Assembly: GCA_034189385.1 (NCBI GenBank)
Contig: JAXHVD010000004.1
Coordinates: 32,001 to 96,000, forward strand
Reading direction: 5' to 3'
Length of the DNA: 64,000 bases
From: Thermodesulfobacteriota bacterium
GTDB taxonomy: Bacteria; Desulfobacterota; Desulfobacteria; Desulfobacterales; C00003060
Below, piece after piece: positions 4,859 to 50,257 of the stretch. Made by a program: the position numbers and the translations under genes. The first letter of the stretch is position 1, and each line of letters begins with the position of its first letter. The notes under the pieces are model-generated. The model was not told where the DNA came from and did not search any database. It saw only the letters and a program-made list of their open reading frames with translations.

Positions 4859-6351
4859 GCCAACAATATCCTGCACTACTTGTCATTGTGCCCCTCCTTT
4901 CGGCCTTAGTTATCAGTGCTGCCGGATGGATAAACAAAAGACTCTGTTTTCCAATTGCCGTTGCAGCCCTGGGCGTGGCGGCCTATTCATCCATTGGCCT
5001 GCTATTAAGGGTCTTAGACGAAGGGGCGATCGTTTATCGGTTGGGAGGATGGGACCCGCCAATGGGGATTGCCTATTATGTGGATCATCTCAACGGGCTG
5101 GTTCTGGCAGTGGTTTCAGTCGTTGCCTTCCTTAATCTGATAGCGAGCAAAAAGAGCATTGAACTCGAGTTGCCGGACAAAACAGCTCCCTTTTACGCAT
5201 TGTATGTCTTACAGGTCACCGGTCTTTTAGGTATCGTGGCCACCGGAGATGCCTTCAACCTGTACGTGCTGCTGGAGATTACGGCGCTCAGCGGCTACGC
5301 CATGCTTGCCATGGGGAAGGACCGCGCTCAGCTTTCCACGCTCAATTATCTCTACATGGGTACTATTGGGGCGTGCTTCTATCTGTTGGGCGTTGGTTAT
5401 CTCTATATTGTCACTGGTTCGCTGAACATGGTAGACATTGCCAATATTTTGCCTTCCCTTTATGAGTCCAAGGCCGTGCTGGGCGCTTTTATCATCTGTT
5501 TGGTCGGTGTCTGGGTCAAGATGGCCTTCTTCCCGCTCCATGCCTGGCTCCCCAATGCGTATACACACGGCCCTTCTGCGGCCAGCAGTTTGATTGCCCC
5601 CTTGGTAACCAAGGTGATGATCTATGTGATGATTCGCCTCATTTTGACTGTTTTTACGCCGGAGTTTGCCTTCAACATCCTGGCCATAAGCAAGCCCATT
5701 GTCTGGCTTGCCTGCATTGCCATTTTTATGGGGGCCATCCTTGCCCTGGCAGAGCGCAATCTGAAGAAGATGTTGACCTACATCATTGTGGCAGAAGTGG
5801 GCTACATGGTTGGTGGGGCGTGGCTTGGGAATCGGGCGGGCATGACCGGGGCCATCCTCCACATCGTTAACGACGCCCTCATGACCTTGTGCGCCTTTTT
5901 GGTCGTAAGCAACATTGCCTACAAACTCAAAGGATATGCCTTTGACGATATCAAAGGGTTGGTCCGAAAGATGCCCTTCACTATGGGGGCCCTAGTGATC
6001 GGGGCCTTGTCCATTATCGGGGTGCCCCCCACGTGCGGGTTTTTTAGCAAATGGTATCTCATCTCTGGGGCGATTCAGGCCAGCCAATATGCCTTTATGG
6101 TAGCATTGCTGTTTAGCAGTCTGGTGAATGTGGTGCTTTTTTTCAGGGTCATAGAGATTTGTTACTATGAGCCTTTTAGCGACGATGGGGCCCATGGGCA
6201 CGGGCCTCCTTCAGAACCCATGGCAGAGGCCCCGCTCACCATGCTGGTCCCCCTTTTCATCGTTGCCGCAGGGCTGGTCTTGGTGGGTATTTATACGGGC
6301 GACATTGTAAACAAGATTATCGAATTTGCCATACCACAAGGTATTGTTTAG
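4855..6351 (+). CDS. mrpD: Mrp antiporter subunit D family protein (copy 1)
   Basis: GDAFNLYVLLE, KMAFFPLHAWLPNAY, GFFSKW; about 14 TM helices. Confidence 0.92.
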   Translation: MSQQYPALLVIVPLLSALVISAAGWINKRLCFPIAVAALGVAAYSSIGLLLRVLDEGAIVYRLGGWDPPMGIAYYVDHLNGLVLAVVSVVAFLNLIASKKSIELELPDKTAPFYALYVLQVTGLLGIVATGDAFNLYVLLEITALSGYAMLAMGKDRAQLSTLNYLYMGTIGACFYLLGVGYLYIVTGSLNMVDIANILPSLYESKAVLGAFIICLVGVWVKMAFFPLHAWLPNAYTHGPSAASSLIAPLVTKVMIYVMIRLILTVFTPEFAFNILAISKPIVWLACIAIFMGAILALAERNLKKMLTYIIVAEVGYMVGGAWLGNRAGMTGAILHIVNDALMTLCAFLVVSNIAYKLKGYAFDDIKGLVRKMPFTMGALVIGALSIIGVPPTCGFFSKWYLISGAIQASQYAFMVALLFSSLVNVVLFFRVIEICYYEPFSDDGAHGHGPPSEPMAEAPLTMLVPLFIVAAGLVLVGIYTGDIVNKIIEFAIPQGIV

Positions 6352-6405
6352 TGAAGGAAAGGCATATCAGACTTGCATCCTACTAACTATTAACAAGGCA
6401 TTGAT

Positions 6406-7884
6406 ATGGAAACGATGATATCCATAAAGCCCCTGCTAGCTGTCCTTGTCTCCTTGTTGATCACGCCTATCCTGGTCTCCAGCCGAGCGCCGAATGTCCG
6501 GGAAGCATGGACCTTTGTGGCAGCCGTTGCAAAGTTCTTGATTGTCCTATCTATGCTTCCCACCATCATGAAAGGGACAGAGATCGTCTACACGGTAGCG
6601 GAGTTTCTGCCCGGGGCAGCAATCAAGTTCAGGGTTGATGCCTTGGGGATGCTCTTTGCCCTTGTCTCTTCCTCCCTCTGGATCATCACTTCCGCATACT
6701 CCATCGGCTACATGCGAGGGCTGAAGGAACACAGCCAGACCCGCTATTTTGTCTTCTTTGCCTTCGCCCTTTCAGCGACTGTTGGTGTGGCTTTTTCAGC
6801 AAACTTGTTAACCATGTACCTGTTTTACGAGATGCTGTCTCTGGCGACTTATCCTTTGGTCACGCACCATCAGGACCATGAGGCTCGAAGCTCAGGGCGA
6901 AAATATCTCCTTTACATCGTGGGTACGTCTATCGGCCTTGCATTGCCGGCCATGCTGATATCGTACAACCTGGCCGGCACCCTGGAGTTTGGAAAACAAG
7001 GCTTCTTGGCGGGAACGGCCTCCAAGCCCTTGATTGGTCTCCTTCTTTTCATGTTCCTTTTTGGGTTTGCCAAGGCAGCGATTATGCCCTTTCACTCCTG
7101 GTTGCCTGCAGCCATGGTGGCACCCACGCCTGTCAGCGCCTTGTTGCATGCAGTGGCCGTTGTAAAGGTAGGTGTTTTTAGCGTTGTTCGCGTGCTCACC
7201 GGGGTCTTCGGAACAGACCTATTGTTTTCCCTTGATTTCGGCCCCGTCATTCTCTTGGTTGCATCGGCCACGATTCTTATCGGCTCATTCATTGCCCTTT
7301 CTCAAGACGGCTTGAAGCGGCTTCTCGCCTATTCGACCATTGCGCAATTGTCGTATATCGTACTCGGCGTGGGCCTGCTCTCCCCAAAGGGGATCACCGG
7401 CGGCATGGTCCATATTGCCATGCACGCCTTTGGTAAGATCACCCTCTTTTTCTGTGCAGGCGCCATCTTTGTGGCCACGGGCAAGAAGAACATCAGCGAG
7501 ATGGTGGGCATCGGCAGGAGGATGCCCGTGACCATGGCGGCCTTTTTTATTGCCTCATTGAGTATCATCGGGATGCCCCCTTGCGGGGGTTTCGTCAGCA
7601 AATGGTACCTTGTCCTGGGATCGCTCGAAGCCCACCAGATGCCGATCCTCTATGTCTTGCTCTTCAGTTCCCTGCTGAATGCGGCTTACTTCATGCCTAT
7701 TGTTTACAGGGCCTTCTTCTGCAGGCCCGAAGAGGCCATGTTTGAAAATACCGTACAAGAGGCCCCGCCATTTTGCGTGGTGCCCTTGGTGATCACCGCC
7801 GTGATCTCCGTGATACTGCTTTTTTACCCCCAACCTTTTTTCAACTTGGCCAGTATGATGGTACAGCAAATAACAGGGACGTAA
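6406..7884 (+). CDS. Mrp antiporter subunit D family / proton-conducting membrane transporter (copy 2)
   Basis: LFYEM, KAAIMPFHSWLP..MVAPTPVSALLH, LLAYST. Confidence 0.9.
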   Translation: METMISIKPLLAVLVSLLITPILVSSRAPNVREAWTFVAAVAKFLIVLSMLPTIMKGTEIVYTVAEFLPGAAIKFRVDALGMLFALVSSSLWIITSAYSIGYMRGLKEHSQTRYFVFFAFALSATVGVAFSANLLTMYLFYEMLSLATYPLVTHHQDHEARSSGRKYLLYIVGTSIGLALPAMLISYNLAGTLEFGKQGFLAGTASKPLIGLLLFMFLFGFAKAAIMPFHSWLPAAMVAPTPVSALLHAVAVVKVGVFSVVRVLTGVFGTDLLFSLDFGPVILLVASATILIGSFIALSQDGLKRLLAYSTIAQLSYIVLGVGLLSPKGITGGMVHIAMHAFGKITLFFCAGAIFVATGKKNISEMVGIGRRMPVTMAAFFIASLSIIGMPPCGGFVSKWYLVLGSLEAHQMPILYVLLFSSLLNAAYFMPIVYRAFFCRPEEAMFENTVQEAPPFCVVPLVITAVISVILLFYPQPFFNLASMMVQQITGT

Positions 7885-7887
7885 GTC

Positions 7888-8028
7888 ATGATTGAAGAAA
7901 GAAGCGACGAGATAGAAGGAAAGATGGAACTGGGTCACGAGCCCATCCCGCCGTACAAGACAGTCTTTTTCATAGCCATTACCATCGGCGTCCTGTACCT
8001 TGGTTTTATTCTCTTTAAGACGCTTTGA
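7888..8028 (+). CDS. 46-aa single-TM small protein (not in ORF track)
   Basis: MIEERSDEIEGKMELGHEPIPPYKTVFFIAITIGVLYLGFILFKTL*; starts 3 nt after the upstream stop and fills the operon gap. Confidence 0.7.
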   Translation: MIEERSDEIEGKMELGHEPIPPYKTVFFIAITIGVLYLGFILFKTL

Positions 8029-8069
8029 TCAAGAAACGATGCCACATACTGGATAGGAGAACACTCATA

Positions 8070-8330
8070 ATGAAGGAAGAAGGCCAGAACGAAAAGAAAT
8101 ATCTTTTCGATAATCCCAGAAACGTTAATAGACTCCTTGGGTGTTTCTTTTCATCCCTGGGTGTCTTGCTCATTATTGACCTTTTTGTCCACAAGCACCC
8201 CCATTTTCCTTGGGAGGGTTGGCTGGAATTTTATGCTACCTATGGATTTGTGGCCTGCGTGGCACTTGTTCTCGCAGCAAAATACATCCTGCGGCCCATC
8301 ATGAAGAGACGAGAGGATTACTATGATTAG
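8070..8330 (+). CDS. small 2-TM hypothetical protein of the Mrp-like cluster
   Basis: AGGAG RBS; FDNPRNV...HPHFPWE...FYATYGFVAC...MKRREDYY; overlaps the next start. Confidence 0.8.
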   Translation: MKEEGQNEKKYLFDNPRNVNRLLGCFFSSLGVLLIIDLFVHKHPHFPWEGWLEFYATYGFVACVALVLAAKYILRPIMKRREDYYD

Positions 8331-10095
8331 CACCGTTCCTCCAGCATTCATATTTATCATCGGGGGCTTGCTGGTTCCCTTCATCAAGGGTAGGTGGAAG
8401 AGTGCCTATTTGCTGCTCATCCCTGTCATCGGGTTCATCAACCTGATCAGCATCCCTGAAGGGACCCACTGGGTTGTGAGGTTCCTTGATTGGGAGCTCG
8501 TTTTTGGCAAGATAGACAGACTGAGCCTCCTTTTTGGTTACATTTTCCATCTCATATCCTTTATAGCCCTTCTTTATGCCCTTCACGTAAAAGATGACCT
8601 CCAGCATGTGGCAGGGCTTGTTTACGCCGGTAGCGCCCTAGGGGTTGTCTTTGCAGGAGACATTTTTTCTTTCTTTGTCTTCTGGGAGATGCTCACCGTC
8701 AGCTCTATATTCTTGATCTGGGCCCGCAGGACAAGGGCAGCGCAAGCAGCAGGATTCCGTTATCTTCTCGTTCATGCCGCCGGAGGCCTCTGCCTTCTGG
8801 CAGGGATTGTTCTCTATGTGAATCAAACAGGGTCCCTTGAATTCGGGTATATAGGATTGAACGGATTGGCCACTTACCTTATATTTTTTGGTTTTGGCCT
8901 GAATTGCGCGTGGCCCATACTTCATCCGTGGCTCACGGACGCCTATCCCGAGGCAACGATTACCGGGGTCATATTTATGAGCGCCTTTACCACAAAGTGT
9001 GCGGTCTATGCCCTGGCAAGGGCCTTCCCGGGCACAGAGGCCTTGATATGGATCGGGGCGATCATGACCGGATTCCCTATATTCTATGCCGTCATTGAGA
9101 ATGACCTCAGGAGAGTGCTTGCCTACAGCCTGATCAACCAAGTCGGATTCATGGTGTGCGGCATCGGCATCGGGACGGCTCTGGCCATCAATGGCGCCGT
9201 GGCCCATGTCTTTAATGATGTTCTCTTCAAGGCCCTCCTTTTCATGTCCATGGGCGCAGTCATGTATCGCACAGGAAAAATCAATGGCACGGCCCTGGGG
9301 GGCTTGTACAGGACCATGCCGTTTACCTGTATATGCTGCATGGTAGGGGCTGCGTCCATCTCTGCCTTCCCCCTTTTTAGTGGTTTTGTCAGCAAGTCCA
9401 TGGTGATGGACGCGGCGGCCGGGGGGCATATGAGGATCATATGGTTTATTCTGCTCTTTGCCTCAGCCGGTGTATTCCACCATGCAGGCATCAAGATCCC
9501 CTTTTTCGCATTTTTCGGCCACGACTCTGGTATGAGGCCAAAGGAGGCACCCCTGAATATGCTCCTTGCCATGGGCATTGCCGCTTTCCTATGTATCTTC
9601 ATCGGCTCATTCCCCGGACCCCTGTATAGCCTCCTCCCATACCCTGTTGATTATGTGCCGTACACAGCGCCCCACGTGGTGGGTCAAACCCAGCTCCTCT
9701 TCTTTTCTGCCTTGGCCTTCTCGCTTCTGCTACTCTCCGGCATTTATCCGGGCGAGCAAAGGTGTGTCAACCTTGATTCTGATTGGTTTTACCGCAAGGG
9801 AGGGCGCCTTTTTTACTATGTCATCGATAAAGTTTTTAACAGTCTAACCAGGGCCTCAGAAAGAACCTTTGTTGGGGGGGTGGCCGGATATCTTGGCCGT
9901 GTCTCTAGAGACGGTCCCACCAGAGTGGCACTGTTAGGCTTGGTCCCTGCGTGGATGATAGGCGGCAAAACGGGGGGAAAACTGGAACTTAAGAAAATCA
10001 GCCTTCGTGGAGCTTTGCAGACAGGCACCTTGCCCGTCGGAATCAGTGCAGCAGTAGCCACTGTTTTTCTGATAGTCGTTTTTCTCTTAATGTAA
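8323..10095 (+). CDS. Na+/H+ antiporter subunit D-like protein (copy 3)
   Basis: FWEML, HPWLTDAYPEA, RRVLAYS, GFVSK. Confidence 0.9.
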   Translation: MISTVPPAFIFIIGGLLVPFIKGRWKSAYLLLIPVIGFINLISIPEGTHWVVRFLDWELVFGKIDRLSLLFGYIFHLISFIALLYALHVKDDLQHVAGLVYAGSALGVVFAGDIFSFFVFWEMLTVSSIFLIWARRTRAAQAAGFRYLLVHAAGGLCLLAGIVLYVNQTGSLEFGYIGLNGLATYLIFFGFGLNCAWPILHPWLTDAYPEATITGVIFMSAFTTKCAVYALARAFPGTEALIWIGAIMTGFPIFYAVIENDLRRVLAYSLINQVGFMVCGIGIGTALAINGAVAHVFNDVLFKALLFMSMGAVMYRTGKINGTALGGLYRTMPFTCICCMVGAASISAFPLFSGFVSKSMVMDAAAGGHMRIIWFILLFASAGVFHHAGIKIPFFAFFGHDSGMRPKEAPLNMLLAMGIAAFLCIFIGSFPGPLYSLLPYPVDYVPYTAPHVVGQTQLLFFSALAFSLLLLSGIYPGEQRCVNLDSDWFYRKGGRLFYYVIDKVFNSLTRASERTFVGGVAGYLGRVSRDGPTRVALLGLVPAWMIGGKTGGKLELKKISLRGALQTGTLPVGISAAVATVFLIVVFLLM

Positions 10096-10142
10096 TGTGA
10101 ACTTTAAGGGATGCCAAGCTTCAGTGCTGAGAGGAGAGATAT

Positions 10143-10637
10143 ATGGCTTTGACAGAAGATTTGAGAAAGGTCGCGCTCTTTGAGGACTTGACGGGCCAGA
10201 TGCTTGAACAGTTGGTTCCTATGGTGGAAGCAAAGTCATATGCGGAAAGAGAGATCATTTTTGAGGCAGGCGATAAGGCCGACTGTTTTTATGCGCTCAA
10301 AAGAGGAAAGGTGTTGCTTGAAGCAGAACTTGCTCCAGCTTTCATTATTTCCCTTGGTGCCATAAAGCCAGGATACTCTTTTGGCTGGTCTGCGCTGCTT
10401 CCAGTCGCATCTCATACCTCCTATGCTGTTTCTGCGGAACCATCCGAAATCTTCATCCTACCTGGAGACAAGCTTACGGCCCTGCTCGACCGCGATCACA
10501 CCATGGGATATCTGGTGATGCAAAAGGCGACAACTATCCTTGAGAACCGCTTGGAACGCCGGACGGCTCAGTTTCTCAAGGTCATAACCAGACATCCCGA
10601 GATAGGGACGCTCCTCGGCCTGGAAACTGCCACGTAG
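10143..10637 (+). CDS. cyclic nucleotide-binding (cNMP/Crp-like sensor) domain protein without HTH
   Basis: LFEDL..., IIFEAGDKADCFY...GKV, FGWSAL. Confidence 0.85.
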   Translation: MALTEDLRKVALFEDLTGQMLEQLVPMVEAKSYAEREIIFEAGDKADCFYALKRGKVLLEAELAPAFIISLGAIKPGYSFGWSALLPVASHTSYAVSAEPSEIFILPGDKLTALLDRDHTMGYLVMQKATTILENRLERRTAQFLKVITRHPEIGTLLGLETAT

Positions 10638-10879
10638 GGGCCTGGCCAGGACCATCTTGGGCACGCGGCTCAAGGGCCTGTTGAAGTAAAGCTTGTTCCA
10701 TTGCCCCACACTTAGCTTCATCCTTAACGGGACCGGAACAAGAGGCAGCCTGCTGTCTGGAAAAGGTATTTGCCAAGGCAAAACAGCCGGGCTGTGGGGC
10801 TGTTTCCCTGTGAGACGGCCTAAGCATGACGTCAATAACGGCAGCCCCCTGATTCTGTGACCCCCTGAGATTCCATTAC

Positions 10880-12322
10880 GTGGGGAGATGTTCATTGAAT
10901 AGACAATCTCAATACGCTAGTAAAGGGCCGAGTCTCTGTTTAATTGCCGTTGTTATGGTGATTCTCCTTGGTAGCTTCATCCTCTTGGAGGTCCAGTCAG
11001 TCAGGCAAATGGAAACAATGACGACCATCAGAGAACTGAAAGGTTTCCTCGACGCTTCATATTTCAAGCGCCTTGCCCTACGGAGCCTCTTGGCAGCCAC
11101 AGTGGTCGTCGTACTTGTTTTCTTCATTGCAAGGGAAAGGGCCCGATTTCGAGGTCTGGAACAGGAGGTAAAAGCCACAACCACGAACCTGGCACGCTAT
11201 GCCAAAAGACTCAAGCGCTCTGAGGAAAAACATCGCTCCCTTGTTGAACTGGCAGATGACATCATCTACACTGCCGATCAGTATGGAAATATTCTGTCAA
11301 TCAATCGATGCTTTTCCGGCCTTATTGGGCAACCTCCTGCAGAGGTGATCGGAAAGAATATCACGGATGTTGTCAAACATGAGTCCTCCCTGGACGTTAC
11401 GGCAGTCATCGAAAGGATGTTACGGCAATCCGAGACAGTGGTTCAAGAAGAACATGTGACCATAGGAACGAGAGGTTATTGGCTCCATACAAAATATCAG
11501 ACAGTGGGATCTGATCCAGACGTAGCACCATTGGTTCTTGTGATTTCTCGTGATATTACAGAACACAAACGAATGCAGCAACAGCTTTTTCAGACGGAAA
11601 AGCTCGCATCCCTGGGGGCTTTATCTGCCGGTGTGGCCCATGAAATTAATAACCCCATTGCGGTTATTCTGGGTTTTGCGGAATTACTACTAGATAAGCT
11701 TCCTGAGGGGTTCAAAGAACGCGGAATTTATGAAGCCATTCAAAGGCAAGGGAACAACTGCAAACGGGTGGTTGAAAACCTTCTCGCTTTTTCCCGGATT
11801 CCCGAACAGAAGACATCAGAGACAGACATGATCCAAGACCTTCAAAGGGTAGTCGACCTGGTCAGGAACACCTTGCTCACCGAGAAGGTAGACCTCAGAA
11901 GGGATATAGAAAAGAATCTACCTAAGGTGAGAGCCGACGGCCAGCAGCTGCAACAGGCATTTCTCAATATCATCAACAATGCCGTGGCCGCCATGGAGGA
12001 CGGAGGGACATTGACCATCTCAGCATTTCGGTCCAATGACACAGTTAGTATTGCCTTTGCGGACACGGGCGAGGGTATATTGCCGGAAAACAGGGACAAG
12101 GTTTTTGAACCGTTTTTCACGACCAGAGAGGTTGGAGAAGGAACAGGGTTGGGTTTGTCTGTCAGTTACGGCATCGTGAAGATGTTTGGGGGAAATATTT
12201 CAGTCAGGAGCCAAACCAGAGCGGAAGGCAAAGAACCGGGAACCACATTCACGGTAGTGCTCCCTGTGGCAGATGGTGGCAAGATTGCTCCAAAAGGGGA
12301 AGGAGATGAGCGCGGTCACTGA
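10880..12322 (+). CDS. membrane PAS sensor histidine kinase
   Basis: 2 TM helices, [38 protein letters not shown]; start uncertain. Confidence 0.9.
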   Translation: MGRCSLNRQSQYASKGPSLCLIAVVMVILLGSFILLEVQSVRQMETMTTIRELKGFLDASYFKRLALRSLLAATVVVVLVFFIARERARFRGLEQEVKATTTNLARYAKRLKRSEEKHRSLVELADDIIYTADQYGNILSINRCFSGLIGQPPAEVIGKNITDVVKHESSLDVTAVIERMLRQSETVVQEEHVTIGTRGYWLHTKYQTVGSDPDVAPLVLVISRDITEHKRMQQQLFQTEKLASLGALSAGVAHEINNPIAVILGFAELLLDKLPEGFKERGIYEAIQRQGNNCKRVVENLLAFSRIPEQKTSETDMIQDLQRVVDLVRNTLLTEKVDLRRDIEKNLPKVRADGQQLQQAFLNIINNAVAAMEDGGTLTISAFRSNDTVSIAFADTGEGILPENRDKVFEPFFTTREVGEGTGLGLSVSYGIVKMFGGNISVRSQTRAEGKEPGTTFTVVLPVADGGKIAPKGEGDERGH

Positions 12323-33261: not shown

Positions 33262-36200
33262 CTATATTTTGGATACATTGACCATAAAGGCCTTGGTTTC
33301 AGGGATTCTTGTATTCGGATCCCCAGTTGCAGGGGTAAGCAGATTGGCACTGTCTTCTTTACCCGTTTGGGGCCAGCGCCAGCCAAAACACCACGGGAAG
33401 CCTACCTGGTGCACCGTGTTTCCTCCAATCGTGAAAGGCTTGAATCTCTTGGTCACAATGGCAGTGCATTCCAGGGAGCCACGGGCCGATGAGGCCAATA
33501 CCCGCTCTCCGTTCTTGATACCCTTGAGCTGTGCCAACTCCTCACTCATCTCTACGAAGACCTGGGGCTCCAACTCCAGAAGCCAGGGCTGAGGCCGCGT
33601 CATGAGACCCGTCTGCCAGTGCTCGGACACACGGTAGGTGGTCCCCACAATCGGGTACTTGGGATCGCATGTCTCATAGGCATCTGCCTTGGTTCCGTAC
33701 ACCGGCGCCACAGGGTTCATCCTCTGCTCATTCATCAGGTTCTTTTCAATCGGACACTCCAGCGGTTCATAGTGCTCTGGGAAGGGACCGTCTGCGCGGC
33801 CCGGGCCGAAGATCTGGGCGTGGCCGTGGACGTGCATGATAAAGGCCCACTTGCTTTTGGGATTCGGCTTTTCCAGGCTCCCAAGGGGCGGCCAGCCGCC
33901 GTCGGGCACATCGCCGATCCATTTGCTCCCATTCCACTTGATGACCCACTGATCCTTATCCCATGGTTGGCCCTTCAGGTCCACCGAAGCTCGGTTATAA
34001 ATGATCCTGCGGTTCACGGGCCAGCACCAGGAAAACTTCGGATAGAGCCCGATCTTGTTTTCAGCATCCCCCTGGCCCCGCCGGGCGGCCATGTTTCCCT
34101 TTTCAGTATAACTGTTGCAATAGAGCCAGTTTGCCGAAGAGGTGGAGCCATCGTCTTTCAGGTAGGCAAAACTGGGGACAAGTTCCCCTTTCTTGAAGCT
34201 CTTCTTCTTAGCCGGAAAATCAACGTCTTTTAGAAAATAGCCGTTGATCTCCTTGGCCGCCTTATGAGCATCATACATGCCCTCTGTCACGTAGTCCCAC
34301 TTCAGGTTCAAGATCGGCTCTGGGAAGGCCCCCTTTTCTTTCTCATAGAGTTCCTTGATCTTGAAGCCAAGTTCCATGATGATGTCCCCGTCGGACCTGC
34401 TGTTTCCAAGGGGTTTTGGCCCCGGGTAACGCCACTGCATCCACCGGCCGCTATTGGTGATGCTCCCTTCCTTTTCCACGGATACACAGGCCGGCAAAGA
34501 GAAGACCTCGGTCTTGATCTTGGATGGCTTCATGCCCGGTCCTTTCCAGAAGGAAGCGGTCTCGTTGTCAAAGAGATTCACATTGACCATCCAGTCAAGC
34601 TTGGCCATGGCCTGCCGATTCTTGTTGGCATTGGCCAGCGAGCAGGCCAGATTCATCCCCCAGTTGAAAAAACCCTTGACCTTTCCCTTGTACATGTCGT
34701 CGAACATGTCAAGGAAGGCATAGGTCTTTCCGGCATCCAGTTTAGGCATCCAGTCATAGCCAAAGTCGTTTCTCTTTTTTGCCTTTTCGCCAAAAAATGA
34801 CTTTAACAAACTCACCATGTACTTGGGCTCATTCTGCCACCAGTTGGCGCTCAAGGGGTCATTGCTCTTGGCCCGCCTTTTGAGGTAATCGTCCAGTTTT
34901 GGCCATTTGGTGCTTGGCGTGGCCAGGTACCCCGGCCAGATGTGAAAGAGCAGGCAATGATCTGTGGAACCCTGCACATTAGACTCGCCGCGTAGGGCGT
35001 TCACGCCGCCGCCGGCCACGCCGATGTTCCCGAGAAGGAGCTGAATGATGGCCATGGTTCGGATATTCTGGGTCCCCACCGTGTGTTGGGTCCAGCCCAT
35101 AGCATACATGATGGTACCGGCCTTGCCGGTGGCACCGGTGGCAGTATAGGCCTTGTAGACTGCCATGAGATCGGCCTCCGGTGTCCCTGTGATCTTTGAA
35201 ACCAGCTTGGTGTTGTACCGGTCGTAATGTTTCTTCAACAACTGAAAAACACAGCGGGGATCTTCTAGGCCACGGTCCATCTTGGGAACCCCATTTTCGT
35301 CCATGGCAAAGGCCCATTTGCTCTTGTCATATTTTCGGGCCTTTTTGTCATAGCCGGAGAAGAGACCATCTTTGAAATCAAAGTCTTTTCCCACAACAAA
35401 GGGCGCATTGGTGTATGCGCGCACATAGTCCTTATTGTAAAGCTTGTTGTCGATAATGTACTTGATCATGCCGCCCAAGAAGGCGATGTCGGTCCCTGAT
35501 CGCAGGGCCGTGTAAATGTCAGCTTTTGAAGAGGTCCTGGTGAATCTGGGGTCCACATTCACGAGTTTGGCCCCCTTTTTCATGGCCTGGACCACGTACT
35601 TGAAGGAAATGGGATGGTTCTCGGCAGCATTGCTTCCCATGATCAGGACGCAATCGCTGTTGCCGATGTCTATCCAGTGGTTAGTCATGGCGCCTCGTCC
35701 GAACGACTCTGCCAGAGCCGCTACTGTGGCGCTGTGTCAGATACGGGCCTGATGCTCTATATAGACAAGGCCCAGAGCCCGCATGAGGGCCTGGTAGATC
35801 CAGCACTCCTCGTTATCCAGGGCGGAACTGCCCCCCGAGACGATGGCCGTTGTCCGGTTGACCATCTGCCCTTTCTCGTTCTTGCGGGTAAAGCTCTCAT
35901 CCCGGGTCTCCTTCACCCGCTTGGCAATCTCGGTAAGGGCCCAGTCCCATGAGACCTGCTTCCACTCCTTGGCACCAGGGGCTCGGTACATCGGTTCAAG
36001 GAGCCGGTTTTCGTTTTCTGCCAGCCCGGACAGCGCCGCCCCCTTACTGCAGAGCGAACCGCGGCTTATAACATGGTCCGGATCACCCTCGATGTTCATC
36101 ACGCGGCCGTCGCCTTTTTTGCTCGTATGCACGATAGCCCCACAACCTACTGCACAATAGGGGCAGATGGTGGTAGTCTCTTTGGCATACTTTGTCTTGA

Positions 36201-36312
36201 GCATTTGGGCATGTGACCTCACTGGTGAAAGGTCGAATCCCAGACCGCTCACTGCAAGCCCGGCAGCCGTGGCACCAGAAACCTGCATGAATTCTCTACG
36301 TGTTACTTTCAT
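33262..36312 (-). CDS. fdhA: selenocysteine-containing formate dehydrogenase alpha subunit (Tat-exported), 1016 aa
   Basis: Two ORFs joined by an in-frame TGA at 35737-35739 (EHQARI-U-HSATVAAL); Tat motif TRREFM; CPYCAVGC; RGESNVQG. Confidence 0.95.
35689..35736 (-). promoter_or_regulatory. bacterial SECIS element
   Basis: Immediately 3' of the UGA: lower stem GCGCC/GGCGC and apical stem GCGGCUC-UGGCA-GAGUCGU with a G-containing loop. Confidence 0.8.
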
Positions 36313-36680
36313 GGGTGTAATCACCTTCCTTCCCGATAAAGGTTTGGATACGATTGAGAAAAGCGCGCCTACTAGAAACCGCCTGGACGTCACCCCCTTT
36401 CGAGAAAAATAGACTCATTGCTTAAGAGAATTGTGTTGTGGCAAGTAACCTTCCAACACCAAAGATGGAAAACGCTTTTTGTTGGCCATTGATGCGTTAG
36501 ATATCCAGTCCGAACATGGAAAAAGAAAAAGGTTCAACTATGTCAGATATGACACAACTACCTTATTCTATTACAAAAACTTTTATTCGAAAGGGGAAGG
36601 CCTGTCAACCGTCTATTTGCAGGATAGGGCAAGAAAAACTACGGATTAAACACGGGGATAATATCAGGTCCATACTGTTA

Positions 36681-47320: not shown

Positions 47321-47454
47321 TGAGGCCTTTGCTTAACTGTTTCGAACGTTCATTGTTGGCTTTTGGGGGACCCATCCGGCGGGGGTGAGCGGTCCGCCTT
47401 GGCGGATCAAAAAGTCCACACAACCAAGGGAGAAGGCGTTGCGCAAAGGTCTCA
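47321..47454. mobile_element. MITE with IS5/IS1106-like terminal inverted repeats
   Basis: TGAGGCCTTTGC at the left end versus TGAGACCTTTGC (reverse complement) at the right; internal TCCGCC-TT-GGCGGA hairpin; between convergent genes. Confidence 0.6.
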
Positions 47455-49839
47455 AGGTGTGTTTGTGTGGTCGTGGCTCATTAATACTAAAGAACACCCT
47501 AGGAGCACCCCCCAAACCAGAATCACCACAGGCATACCGTGACCATTGCCCATCCCGCCCGAGCCAGCCGCCGCAATAAAACAGGTGCCGCCACCGCCGC
47601 TGGTATCTTTCGGCAATCCCACCCCGCCGGTCTCCAAGATATACCCATTCACCATTCGGTCAGCATCGCCGTCGCCACCGTCGGTGAACTCCAAGGCAAC
47701 AGAGGTCCTGTCTCCACTGAAGGTGGCATGCTCGGAGTAGTCATACCAGCCCGTGATAGGGTCATATCTGTACCATTTTGAGCCCTTGGGAGCTGCGTCC
47801 GAGAGGTGCACGACCGCTGTGGCCGCGCCATCCTCGCTTGTGGCCTTTAACCTGAAACGAATAAGTCCAAATGGGAACCGGTCAGGCCTGTTGATCCGTT
47901 CTTCAACGTCCTCAGGATCAATTGATTCAAAATATTCCAAAAAGCTATGGGCGTCTCCAGGGCTCACACCGATGGCTTTGTCTCCTGTGACACCCAGAGC
48001 TTTCACTGCCAAGTCTCCTGCCACTTGGCCTTCTGGGGCTTCCTGCTCAGCCGGAACCCCAGTGGAGATGACACGCCAAATAGCGAGGCCGCCGATGACC
48101 CCAGTAGGTGTCTGCGTGGTCACATAGAGGGAACTGCCATCAAATGCGATGCCCTGCACATCGTGGGAGGTCGTGGCTAGCTCAGTCTTCGTGGGACCCT
48201 GAATCTGAAAAACCTTTTTTCCTGCACCAGTGGTCACATAGACAAGGTCATTATATCCGTACACGGCACCAACCAGGCCGTCTTCAAAAACGAGATAATC
48301 CAAATGGGTCATCTCGCCTGAAGCAGCATCAATAAGATGGAAATAGCCGCTGCCGCCCCACACCGATTCCCCATACACCAGGGTCGTCTCATCGCTAAAA
48401 ATGATCGGACCGTTTCCACCTTCATGGGGCTGGGGGAAACTGGCCCTTTCGATGGCAGCCGTGAACCCACTGTTGACCTGATACAGATACATGTTTCCCG
48501 GAGGAAAGTCCCCTGAGGCAAACCAGATGACGTCTGTCCAGGGATTCTGGGTAAAGGAAAAGATGCTACCCTGGGCGCCGGAAGGGAAAGAGGCTACGGA
48601 AGGCACAGAAGCCGTTAAGTCAATGCGATAGATCTTGTCCGTGTTGCCGTTGTCGTGGAAGTAGAGATAATGGTCGCGGCTAATCAGAAAACCAGAAGGG
48701 CCAAAGCCGAAATCAGGTTCCTCGCTCAGATCTAAGACCTCTTTCTTGTCCCCTGTGATGAGGTGATAGGCGTAGATTTTGCCATCATGGCCAGCGTAGA
48801 TCAACTGATGGTCATGATAGGCAAGGGCGCTGTTCCAGGCAAAGGCCGCAGGATCGGGCTCCCCCAGGTACCTGGCGCGATAGGGAGGTGTGGGCACCAC
48901 TTGAACGGCCACGTCTGGGTTCCACAGCCCATGGAAGCTGATCGCGCCATCGTCCTGTCCCCCTGAAAATGGTACCTGTGTACCGACATAAAAAGACATG
49001 CCATCAAAGGCCAGACCCTGGGCATCATCAACGGTCGTGGCTATTGGCGTCTTGGCGGTGCCCTGCACTTCATAGATGGTTTTGCCTCCACCGGAAGTGG
49101 CATAGACCACCTGGTTGTAGCCGTAGGCAGCGCTGGCCAGGCCGCCATCAAAGACTAGATAATCCTCAGCAGCCATGTCCCCTGTGATGGAATCGACCAG
49201 ATGGAAATAGCCATCACCTCCCCAGACGGACTCCCCGTAAAGGAGCGTGGTTGTTCCGTTGAAAATGATTGGGCCGCTGCCACCTTCATGGGGTTGCGGA
49301 AAGGTCGCCCGTTGGGTAGCCCTGGTAAAGGCCCGATCTACCTCGAATAGATACATGTCTCCAGGGGGAAAGTCTGCCGAGGCGAACCAGAGCACATCTG
49401 TCCAGGGGTTCTCGGCAAAGCTAAAGATGCTACCAGAGGCAGCCGTGTCAACGGTTTCAAGATCAGGAGGCCAAGTGGTCGTGAGATCAATACGGTATAT
49501 GTTCTTGGTCTTGCCGTTGTCATGGAAGTAAAGGTAGTTGTCATGGCTGAGCAAGAAGCCGGAAGGGCCAAAACCAAATTTGGGATCACTGCTCAGGTCC
49601 AGCACCTCACTAGACGTGGCATTGGTCAGATCATAGGCGTAGATCTTCTGATCGTTGGCCGGATAGATCAATTGACGCTCATAGTAGCAAATGGAGCTGT
49701 TCCAGGTGAAGGGAGTCGGATAAGGAGTTTCAAGTGGTGAGGACTGCCAAAAATCTGTGGGCGTAATAGCTGCCGATAAACTCTCTCCCAACACAAACGC
49801 AAAAGACACGGCAAAGGCCATGACCATGAATTTTTTCAT
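47452..49839 (-). CDS. secreted tandem-repeat (predicted beta-propeller) protein with choice-of-anchor-U-like domain and CFI-box/GlyGly C-terminal anchor
   Basis: Signal peptide MKKFMVMAFAVS; two highly similar repeats with a 289-aa period; PFGLIRF...WY.YD...GW.DYS...DGG.GDAD domain; GGGGTCFIAAA plus TM helix. Confidence 0.85.
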   Translation of the reverse strand: MKKFMVMAFAVSFAFVLGESLSAAITPTDFWQSSPLETPYPTPFTWNSSICYYERQLIYPANDQKIYAYDLTNATSSEVLDLSSDPKFGFGPSGFLLSHDNYLYFHDNGKTKNIYRIDLTTTWPPDLETVDTAASGSIFSFAENPWTDVLWFASADFPPGDMYLFEVDRAFTRATQRATFPQPHEGGSGPIIFNGTTTLLYGESVWGGDGYFHLVDSITGDMAAEDYLVFDGGLASAAYGYNQVVYATSGGGKTIYEVQGTAKTPIATTVDDAQGLAFDGMSFYVGTQVPFSGGQDDGAISFHGLWNPDVAVQVVPTPPYRARYLGEPDPAAFAWNSALAYHDHQLIYAGHDGKIYAYHLITGDKKEVLDLSEEPDFGFGPSGFLISRDHYLYFHDNGNTDKIYRIDLTASVPSVASFPSGAQGSIFSFTQNPWTDVIWFASGDFPPGNMYLYQVNSGFTAAIERASFPQPHEGGNGPIIFSDETTLVYGESVWGGSGYFHLIDAASGEMTHLDYLVFEDGLVGAVYGYNDLVYVTTGAGKKVFQIQGPTKTELATTSHDVQGIAFDGSSLYVTTQTPTGVIGGLAIWRVISTGVPAEQEAPEGQVAGDLAVKALGVTGDKAIGVSPGDAHSFLEYFESIDPEDVEERINRPDRFPFGLIRFRLKATSEDGAATAVVHLSDAAPKGSKWYRYDPITGWYDYSEHATFSGDRTSVALEFTDGGDGDADRMVNGYILETGGVGLPKDTSGGGGTCFIAAAGSGGMGNGHGMPVVILVWGVLLGCSLVLMSHDHTNTP

Positions 49840-49894
49840 GACATTACTCCCCTGCAATGAGGATTACTTCCCGCCATGTGCCGCGATAAAGGGC

Positions 49895-49931
49895 AAAAAA
49901 ATCCCCAGACTGACCACGTCAGCCTGGGGAT
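49895..49931 (-). terminator. intrinsic terminator in the riboswitch expression platform
   Basis: ATCCCCAGGCTGAC-GTG-GTCAGTCTGGGGAT followed by TTTTTT, upstream of the start codon. Confidence 0.85.
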
Positions 49932-49999
49932 GTCCCTTTTTTACCCACAAACTGCATCGCGTCCACAATCCAGCACCGTCGATTGTAACGCAATCTTCT

Positions 50000-50165
50000 C
50001 CTGCGGCAGGTCTTCTGGCTCTCGGATCACCCTACGGACCGCACCTTCCCATCCCCCTTCTGGAGAACAGTGGCATAGTTGCGGCCTTTGTCCCCGATCA
50101 CAGCGGCGGGCCCACTCCCGATTTGAACGGGATTCCCTATTAAGCCCTAACGGGCGCCACAAATT
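50000..50165 (-). ncRNA. cobalamin (AdoCbl) riboswitch
   Basis: AATAGGGAATCCCGTTCAAATCGGGAG..GCCCGCCGCTGTGA, GCCACTG, GGGAAGG and B12-box GAGCCAGAAGACCTGCC. Confidence 0.95.
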
Positions 50166-50257
50166 TGTACATAAACCAAAATGTCCCTAGTGTCAACTGT
50201 TGCCCAAACCGATAAGCATCGACCGCGTGCGACCGTGAGCGTCTCCTTGCTTCTACC

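Follow-up and report, generated by a model that had tools for sequence, protein, structure and literature searches.

What is the product of a gene that stands alone behind a cobalamin riboswitch? The question arises at a locus in a 64,000-nucleotide (nt) stretch of DNA, hereafter called the window, from a Thermodesulfobacteriota bacterium of the order Desulfobacterales (assembly GCA_034189385.1, contig JAXHVD010000004.1, positions 32,001 to 96,000 of the forward strand). The gene encodes 795 amino acids (aa), among them two similar repeats. A reading of the bare sequence, here called the original prediction, had taken the protein for an anchored, bivalent scavenger of cobamides or cobalt from a family that it did not recognise. 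Here, we report that the family is coupled throughout to corrinoid transport genes, and that its riboswitch and btu gene context is near-universal. We consider it rather probable that the window protein is an envelope-anchored, bivalent corrinoid-capture protein that would feed BtuB, as an analogue but not a homologue of BtuG.

Riboswitch and leader

A covariance scan of the whole window with Rfam returned a single match, a cobalamin riboswitch aptamer (RF00174) at 49988..50176 on the minus strand. It covers the full model (positions 1-189 of 189) with 94.8 bits (E 2.5e-22), the gathering score being 31.5 bits. The canonical B12 riboswitch of the original prediction was thereby confirmed; the feature end given there, 50165, however, misses the first 11 bases of the aptamer, which runs from 50176. 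A hairpin that starts 57 nt past the aptamer represents the predicted intrinsic terminator of the expression platform (49894..49931, minus strand). Its stem of 14 pairs (49931..49901, minus strand) is perfect, with 8 of the 14 pairs being G-C, and is followed by a tail of seven T (TTTTTTT); the loop comprises 3 nt. The 111-nt leader has a folding energy of -50 kcal/mol (z -5.3 relative to shuffles). As anticipated, the U-tailed terminator precedes just one gene, whose coding sequence (47452..49839, minus strand, stop included) begins with an ATG at 49839 and ends with a stop codon at 47454-47452. A Shine-Dalgarno-like GGGGAG, read from the sequence, is located 7 nt 5' of the ATG (49847..49852, minus strand).

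The same arrangement recurs in the family members described below. Of the 25 loci with a directly adjacent riboswitch, 23 have a perfect hairpin of at least 11 pairs with a T-run, located 50-75 nt downstream of the aptamer, and the stem sequences vary among clades. The exceptions are locus L028, which has a weak 6-pair hairpin within the coding region, and locus L039, which has none. Judging from aptamer and terminator, the element is predicted to be a transcriptional riboswitch of the OFF type. At high intracellular corrinoid levels, the aptamer would be bound, the terminator would form, and transcription would stop ahead of the gene. When corrinoid is scarce, read-through would permit synthesis of the protein.

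Cobalamin riboswitches and btu genes across the family

We examined 93 loci, 16 from species-representative genomes and 77 from metagenomes (designated by L and a number), all of which were scanned with Rfam. A tblastn search with the two repeats detected the propeller region (see below) in 46 of them, which form 35 clusters at 95% nucleotide identity. The other 47 loci match the C-terminal region only: L059-L104 share the choice-of-anchor-U region, and in L057 a close relative is truncated to its C-terminal end. Upstream of the propeller gene and in the same orientation, RF00174 was detected in 31 of the 46 propeller loci, corresponding to 27 of the 35 clusters, so that the expected enrichment of homologs behind B12 riboswitches was indeed found. 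No riboswitch was detected in the other 15 propeller loci (L004, L008, L009, L013, L016, L031, L036, L038, L041, L042, L046, L047, L052, L053, L058). In 11 of these, just 0-274 nt are available upstream of the first repeat. The upstream bases of L009, L047, and L052 belong to the 3' end of btuC and are 91-100% identical to btuC of L048, a locus clustered with L009 and L047 that carries its riboswitch 3 kb upstream, ahead of btuF. In L008, btuF-D-C occupy the upstream region up to 88 nt from the contig end. Since all 15 loci are either short of upstream sequence or filled with a btu operon to the contig edge, no locus contradicts the association.

As a control, we considered the 46 loci that share the choice-of-anchor-U region only. 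RF00174 was detected in none of them, indicating that the B12 link belongs to the propeller and not to the anchor domain; the latter was therefore rejected as carrier of the link. A further estimate comes from the source genome, which harbours five copies of RF00174 in 4.13 Mb. Thus, a chance occurrence of the riboswitch within 500 nt of a given gene would be a per-mille event. As a separate observation, four of the 46 anchor-only loci, all from metagenomes, contain riboswitches of the c-di-GMP-I type (c-di-GMP, cyclic diguanosine monophosphate; RF01051, RF03167), namely L069 and L070 (4861-4947), L096 (1-113), and L101 (1119-1203). This indicates that the anchor domain serves c-di-GMP-regulated surface proteins, too.

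The genes accompanying the propeller gene point in the same direction as the riboswitch. According to Pfam, a TonB-dependent receptor (Plug plus barrel, ~690-750 aa) is encoded directly downstream in 12 loci (L002, L006, L010, L031, L032, L038, L041, L042, L044, L046, L053, L054) and farther downstream in L009, L016, and L050. Genes of the BtuF/C/D type (Peripla_BP_2, FecCD, ABC_tran) are present in L001, L003, L008, L010, L011, L012, L014, L015, L016, L043, L048, L049, L054, and L056. In L010, L012, L015, L048, and L054, a single riboswitch precedes btuF/C/D-type genes and the propeller gene behind them, at a distance of ~3 kb from the latter. Taken by cluster, a TonB-dependent receptor gene and/or btuF/C/D-type genes occur in at least 21 of 35, and the homologs thus do lie beside btu genes, as had been proposed. 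The receptors and BtuF proteins rank B12-specific NCBIfam models best or second-best, yet under the curated cut-offs; the labels BtuB-like and BtuF-like are accordingly based on family-level matches and on the riboswitch. Because of this btu context, cobalt, which the original prediction had named as an alternative ligand, is unlikely.

Predicted fold of the repeat

The motifs FTWNS and FAWNS start at residues 44 and 333, respectively, which corresponds to the spacing of 289 codons noted originally. Repeat 1 (aa 30-318; 48886..49752, minus strand) and repeat 2 (aa 319-610; 48010..48885, minus strand, delimited by repeat comparison and the full-length model) share 155 of 260 aligned residues (60% identity, E 9e-119), in line with the predicted strong similarity. 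The polar motifs YFHDN, NPW, GE, and FH are conserved in both repeats. Invariant or nearly invariant polar residues are H106, D107, N108, N144, E203, and H213, which have counterparts in repeat 2. All 28 repeat segments compared carry an acidic net charge (mean -17).

The AlphaFold2 model of the full-length protein, computed from a 43-row alignment, reached a predicted local distance difference test (pLDDT) score of 88.2 and a predicted template modelling (pTM) score of 0.84. It shows two all-beta propellers and a beta-sandwich, then a G-rich linker without ordered structure and a helix at the C-terminus. The model of the single repeat, based on 28 aligned repeat segments, has a pLDDT of 93.7, a pTM of 0.91, and 24 strands, from which we deduce six four-stranded blades for each predicted propeller.

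In a Foldseek search of the PDB with the single repeat, six-bladed propellers ranked top, with virginiamycin B lyase at E 4e-10. Template modelling (TM) scores ranged from 0.57 to 0.71 and included 0.67 for gluconolactonase and 0.71 for Diels-Alderase. VIA-align against 48,161 representative chains gave a plateau at Z 20-25 with 242-272 aligned residues and root-mean-square deviations of 2.7-3.5. The matches comprised lactonases (one with Z 24.1), NHL domains, Drp35, SMP-30, and strictosidine synthase, as well as two Bacteroides proteins described as of unknown function or as "auxiliary nutrient binding". As the plateau is flat, no single family stands out. BtuG chains were not among the 50 matches listed by Foldseek or by VIA-align, a listing that does not exclude similarity. 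With the whole 795-aa model, the fold search returned only generic tandem-propeller matches with TM-scores of ~0.25. The best ESM Atlas score was 0.85 (DUF4394/DUF6923/NHL clusters), which is under the 0.9 level and provides leads only. A Pfam scan at E ≤ 1 listed five families, and SGL, NHL, Str_synth, PF16819, and DUF4465 were not among them. No Pfam or NCBIfam model covers the propeller repeat, and no enzyme Pfam reached its threshold. Beyond the generic six-bladed propeller fold, the repeat resembles no characterised enzyme or adhesin. A complex prediction for the BtuB-like receptor of the source genome with repeat 1, run without controls, returned no answer (both scores 0.00) and is neutral as to binding.

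Predicted export signal and C-terminal region

The protein starts with a predicted Sec signal peptide (aa 1-24, MKKFMVMAFAVSFAFVLGESLSAA; 49768..49839, minus strand), judged from the sequence, which ends in GESLSAA-ITP and lacks a lipobox cysteine. This region was modelled as a low-confidence N-terminal helix, and homologs keep A-x-A followed by (I/L)TP at this position. Downstream of the propellers, the predicted choice-of-anchor-U-like domain was recovered as NF041766 (aa 654-741; 47617..47880, minus strand) with 69.2 bits against a cutoff of 32 bits, and with 71.8 bits on the C-terminal fragment alone. In the model, it corresponds to the beta-sandwich.

The C-terminal region reads GGGGTCFIAAAG, followed by a spacer and a hydrophobic helix. 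It contains a polyG-C-F-I box, GGGGTCFIA (aa 748-756; 47572..47598, minus strand), whose C753 and F754 are conserved in at least 90% of the alignment rows. The helix in the structure model (aa 769-788; 47476..47535, minus strand) is a putative membrane anchor or sorting helix. Of the 43 aligned family members, 42 have a polyG-C-F-[IVL] box, mostly followed by a helix and a basic tail; the tail of the window protein, SHDHTNTP, is not basic, unlike that of most homologs. The original prediction had described this region as a CFI-box/GlyGly membrane anchor. The motif and a predicted helix are present, but no curated model matches the label: the last 61 aa gave no NCBIfam match at E ≤ 10, and "CFI-box/GlyGly" is therefore to be understood as the description of a motif and not as confirmed family membership.

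The box is not confined to the propeller family. The source genome has eight stop-to-stop frames with a polyG-C-F-[IVL] box at the C-terminus. Five of them (C1:301044-302159, C1:302057-305536, C8:61976-63712, C16:56951-58834, C64:97108-97728; C and a number designate sequences of the source genome) and the window gene seem to encode genuine exported proteins. Most of the box proteins in this genome stop 8-20 residues past the box and have no transmembrane helix. Boxes near the C-terminus without a helix suggest that the box is a distinct type of signal for sorting or modification.

Size, distribution, and variants of the family

A word-indexed search retrieved 78 homologs at E ≤ 1e-3, the closest being 97% identical over the full length. 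All named sources are Thermodesulfobacteriota, Desulfobacterales, or Desulfatibacillum. We also searched 1.84 billion cluster representatives with a hidden Markov model profile of the single repeat. There were 212 matches at E ≤ 1e-3 but only 34 at E ≤ 1e-30, and beyond the latter value the scores dropped to partial, blade-level matches. Judged by these searches, the family is small and sharply bounded. It is also new in the sense of the original prediction, given that neither Pfam nor NCBIfam holds a model of the repeat. The literature searched contained no description of the propeller family or of its tail motif, and the database annotations read only "hypothetical protein" or "choice-of-anchor U domain-containing protein".

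The number of repeats varies from one (L008, L009, L052) and two (window protein) to three in L012, where the protein comprises 952 aa (L012:5875-8733). Single-repeat forms lack the choice-of-anchor-U domain yet retain the CFI box and the helix, as exemplified by a protein of 365 aa with these two elements only (L008:2897-3994). In L050 (3983-5455) and L054 (3884-5242), one propeller is combined with other C-terminal modules. Thus, the C-terminal modules vary while the propeller remains constant. The variable copy number and the exchange of modules support the idea of a modular unit, which would fit a binding function. A separate observation concerns the cultured Desulfatibacillum alkenivorans DSM 16219 (L015), which has two double-propeller paralogs (6001-8403 and 9723-12290) behind riboswitch-btuD-btuC, with a radical-SAM/BATS gene between them.

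B12 economy of the source genome

All five RF00174 copies of the source genome precede uptake genes. Two of them control btuF-D-C operons (C32, C56). A further one, on C56, is followed by the gene of a BtuB-like receptor and that of a 556-aa choice-of-anchor-U protein. Another, on C32, precedes an N-terminal part with similarity to DUF4465 (45 bits), an immunoglobulin (Ig)-like part, and a choice-of-anchor-U part in three different frames. The remaining copy belongs to the double-propeller gene of the window. With DUF4465 being a known B12 binder, the combination on C32 means that the organism fits the same anchor module to a known B12-binding domain. The pieces of this gene (L026:3208-4407, minus strand; riboswitch at C32:4793-4980) represent either a disrupted gene or an assembly error.

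CbiC (PF02570) and CobS (PF02654) gave no match in the source genome, which is an estimated 90.4% complete. Likewise, the BtuG-type family PF16819 was not matched in this genome, while the control matched in B. thetaiotaomicron. Owing to the incompleteness of the genome, these absences are provisional. The B12-binding domain PF02310 gave 16 matches, 15 of them above the cut-off. The lack of CbiC and CobS matches, together with 16 B12-binding domains and five riboswitches on uptake genes, implies that scavenging matters to the organism. Judging from this gene inventory, it is probably a cobamide auxotroph with high demand.

The 556-aa protein on C56 belongs to a second unnamed family of ~560-600 aa that follows the BtuB-like receptor gene in B12-riboswitch loci, with 50-72% identity between loci (C56:86727-88397, i.e. 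L027:6727-8397; L006:10480-12210; L044:8507-10309; L053:3409-5127; L003:10192-12018; L013:1263-5138). Its members start with ~300 aa that match no Pfam family, continue with an Ig-like stretch, and end in a choice-of-anchor-U domain (56.9 bits) with a C-F-V box. The L013 member is part of a fusion protein of 1291 aa.

Neighbouring genes in the window

Upstream of the gene, on the same strand, are a PilZ gene and a gene for a DnaJ-domain protein; downstream is a convergent HEAT-repeat gene. No btuB or btuFCD was found among the 22 neighbouring open reading frames (ORFs) of the window that were scanned, which agrees with the original description of the locus. We conclude that the gene is monocistronic and stands alone. 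The stand-alone layout recurs in the closest relatives (L028-L030, L037, L039; 80-97% identity). Elsewhere in the window, a molybdopterin oxidoreductase is seemingly split over two ORFs on the minus strand. The shorter ORF (218 aa, 35737-36393) accounts for the Fe4S4 domain and the first part of the Molybdopterin domain; the longer one (808 aa, 33262-35688) encodes the remainder. The split might be due, among other possible causes, to an in-frame stop codon that is read as selenocysteine.

Discussion

A corrinoid-capturing protein at the cell envelope would account for the findings in the following way. After Sec-dependent export, the protein would be held at the envelope by its C-terminal tail and may be exposed on the surface. 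The two propellers probably act as independent corrinoid-binding modules that capture cobamides outside the cytoplasm, and H106-D107-N108, N144, E203, and H213 are candidates for the corrinoid site. The cargo would then be passed to the BtuB-like TonB-dependent receptor and to importers of the BtuFCD type, both encoded elsewhere in the genome.

Several results weigh against this assignment. The C-terminal helix behind a Sec signal is also compatible with anchoring in the inner membrane, facing the periplasm, and the last 61 aa matched no NCBIfam sorting-signal model, or any other NCBIfam model, at E ≤ 10. Against the BtuB model TIGR01779, with its cut-off of 599.7 bits, the receptors reach just 165-170 bits. 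The distribution of the family is patchy: it was found in seven of 151 genomes of the same order and in neither of the two further genomes of the genus. CbiC occurs in three of the seven genomes that hold the family compared with 81 of the 151 genomes overall, a small sample of related genomes that gives no signal. The idea that the family is tied to corrin auxotrophy across the order was consequently dropped. Moreover, the window protein has no match to PF16819 (Pfam, E ≤ 1), and its fold class, the six-bladed propellers of the SGL/NHL type, consists predominantly of enzymes, among them lactonases, lyases, and strictosidine synthase. When PDB chain sequences were searched with profiles, RACK1 matched best (E 3e-4 to 2e-3), though only along a short segment, and BamB gave E ≥ 0.02; both were discarded as generic blade similarity.

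The ambiguity of the helix leads to the first of the other explanations. The protein may be a periplasmic handler, anchored in the inner membrane, that holds or chaperones corrinoids between BtuB and BtuF, or stores them. The absence of a lipobox, the hydrophobic C-terminal helix with a basic tail in most homologs, and a tail that no known sorting-signal model recognises are all compatible with this location, as is the position of the gene directly after btuF-D-C in several loci (L008, L048). Nevertheless, we regard it as unlikely. The choice-of-anchor-U domain and the conserved polyG-CF[IVL] box resemble a processed sorting signal, and several ORFs of the source genome end 8-20 aa past the box without a helix. 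Furthermore, an outer-membrane receptor is the immediate downstream partner in 12 loci, and the occurrence of choice-of-anchor-U near c-di-GMP riboswitches elsewhere fits surface proteins. Somewhat less likely still is an extracytoplasmic enzyme whose catalytic propellers release or trim corrinoids or corrinoid-carrier complexes before import. It is true that the best structural matches are enzymes (virginiamycin B lyase, gluconolactonases, Diels-Alderases, a lactonase) and that H106, D107, N108, N144, E203, and H213 could form a metal or active site. On the other hand, the structural plateau at Z 20-25 includes non-enzymatic NHL domains, no enzyme Pfam was found at threshold, and one to three whole-domain copies in tandem are more typical of binding modules. 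In addition, as neither CobS nor CbiC was found in the source genome (90.4% complete), the organism would be unable to rebuild a trimmed corrinoid.

Adhesin-like surface proteins commonly combine propeller and choice-of-anchor architectures. The riboswitch might repress a protein that does not deal with corrinoids itself, for example, an adhesin or contact protein that attaches B12-starved cells to corrinoid producers, or some other starvation response. The gene stands alone without a btu neighbour in the window and in L028-L030, L037, and L039, as this explanation would have it. It is nonetheless very improbable, because at least 21 of the 35 clusters have the propeller gene within or next to a set of btu transporter genes, and in several it shares one operon with them, led by a single riboswitch.

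If the window protein is indeed a corrinoid catcher, it may belong to a larger system. We tentatively suggest, as a real possibility that falls a little short of being probable, that Desulfobacterales own an extracellular corrinoid relay that evolved independently of that of Bacteroides. It would comprise the hitherto undescribed six-bladed propeller in one to three copies as a multivalent cobamide receptor, the likewise undescribed protein of ~560-600 aa encoded after btuB, and a DUF4465 protein of the BtuJ type. B12 riboswitches precede all of these, and most have choice-of-anchor-U and a polyG-CFI tail. In anoxic sediments, cobamides are a nutrient that is exchanged and competed for, and nearly all accessory surface binders characterised so far come from gut Bacteroidota. 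If sulfate reducers had linked a second, unrelated propeller family to this riboswitch and these transporters, B12 catchers would have arisen convergently, and a new corrinoid-binding fold would be gained. Such a family would also explain how a likely auxotroph, with no CbiC or CobS found and 16 B12-binding domains, competes for corrinoids. Because the family is small and bounded, and because cultured Desulfatibacillum strains carry it, the claim is directly testable.

Comparison with known systems

With respect to fold class, the repeat resembles six-bladed propellers of the SGL/NHL type, such as gluconolactonase/SMP-30, Drp35, virginiamycin B lyase, and the NHL domain of TRIM proteins. It differs from them in sequence (7-15% identity, no Pfam model of these families at threshold) and in context, which is corrinoid transport and not sugar, lactone, or antibiotic metabolism. 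With BtuJ/DUF4465 and BtuH, the window protein has in common that they are accessory, exported, riboswitch-regulated proteins of btu loci. Two papers describe DUF4465 as the BtuJ-type B12-binding domain (PMC13398666, PMC13616437), with a beta-jelly roll fold (PMC13398666). The DUF4465 fragment of the source genome carries the same choice-of-anchor-U module behind another B12 riboswitch; however, the jelly roll is not a propeller, and there is no sequence similarity to the window protein.

The closest counterpart is BtuG. Bacteroides BtuG and other surface lipoproteins from riboswitch-regulated btu loci bind B12 (PMC13616437, PMC13398666); BtuG has seven blades, takes up B12 at one propeller face, and covers BtuB like a lid (PMC13616437). 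PMC13398666 names PF16819 (DUF5074) as a co-located propeller family, and since the B. thetaiotaomicron control matched as well, PF16819 appears to be the Pfam family of BtuG. Like BtuG1, BtuG2, and BtuG3 of B. thetaiotaomicron, the proteins described here are predicted exported beta-propellers of btu loci regulated by cobalamin riboswitches, often encoded beside a TonB-dependent receptor gene; this placement is seen in 12 loci of relatives but not at the window locus. The surface of BtuG is acidic, and so are the repeat segments of the family. The negatively charged surface of BtuG2 is described as attracting B12 (PMC13616437), a parallel that by analogy may lend weak support to a corrinoid-binding role of the acidic repeats. 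The differences lie in the number of blades (seven in BtuG, six in the predicted model of the repeat), in the anchor (BtuG is a lipoprotein, whereas the window protein has no lipobox), and in the architecture, which combines tandem propellers, choice-of-anchor-U, a polyG-CFI box, and a helical tail. Given the six blades and the missing PF16819 match, the repeat is a candidate analogue of BtuG and not a member of its family. Accessory exported B12 binders encoded in riboswitch-controlled btu loci are known from Bacteroidota, and the window protein would be a new, non-homologous variant of this principle.

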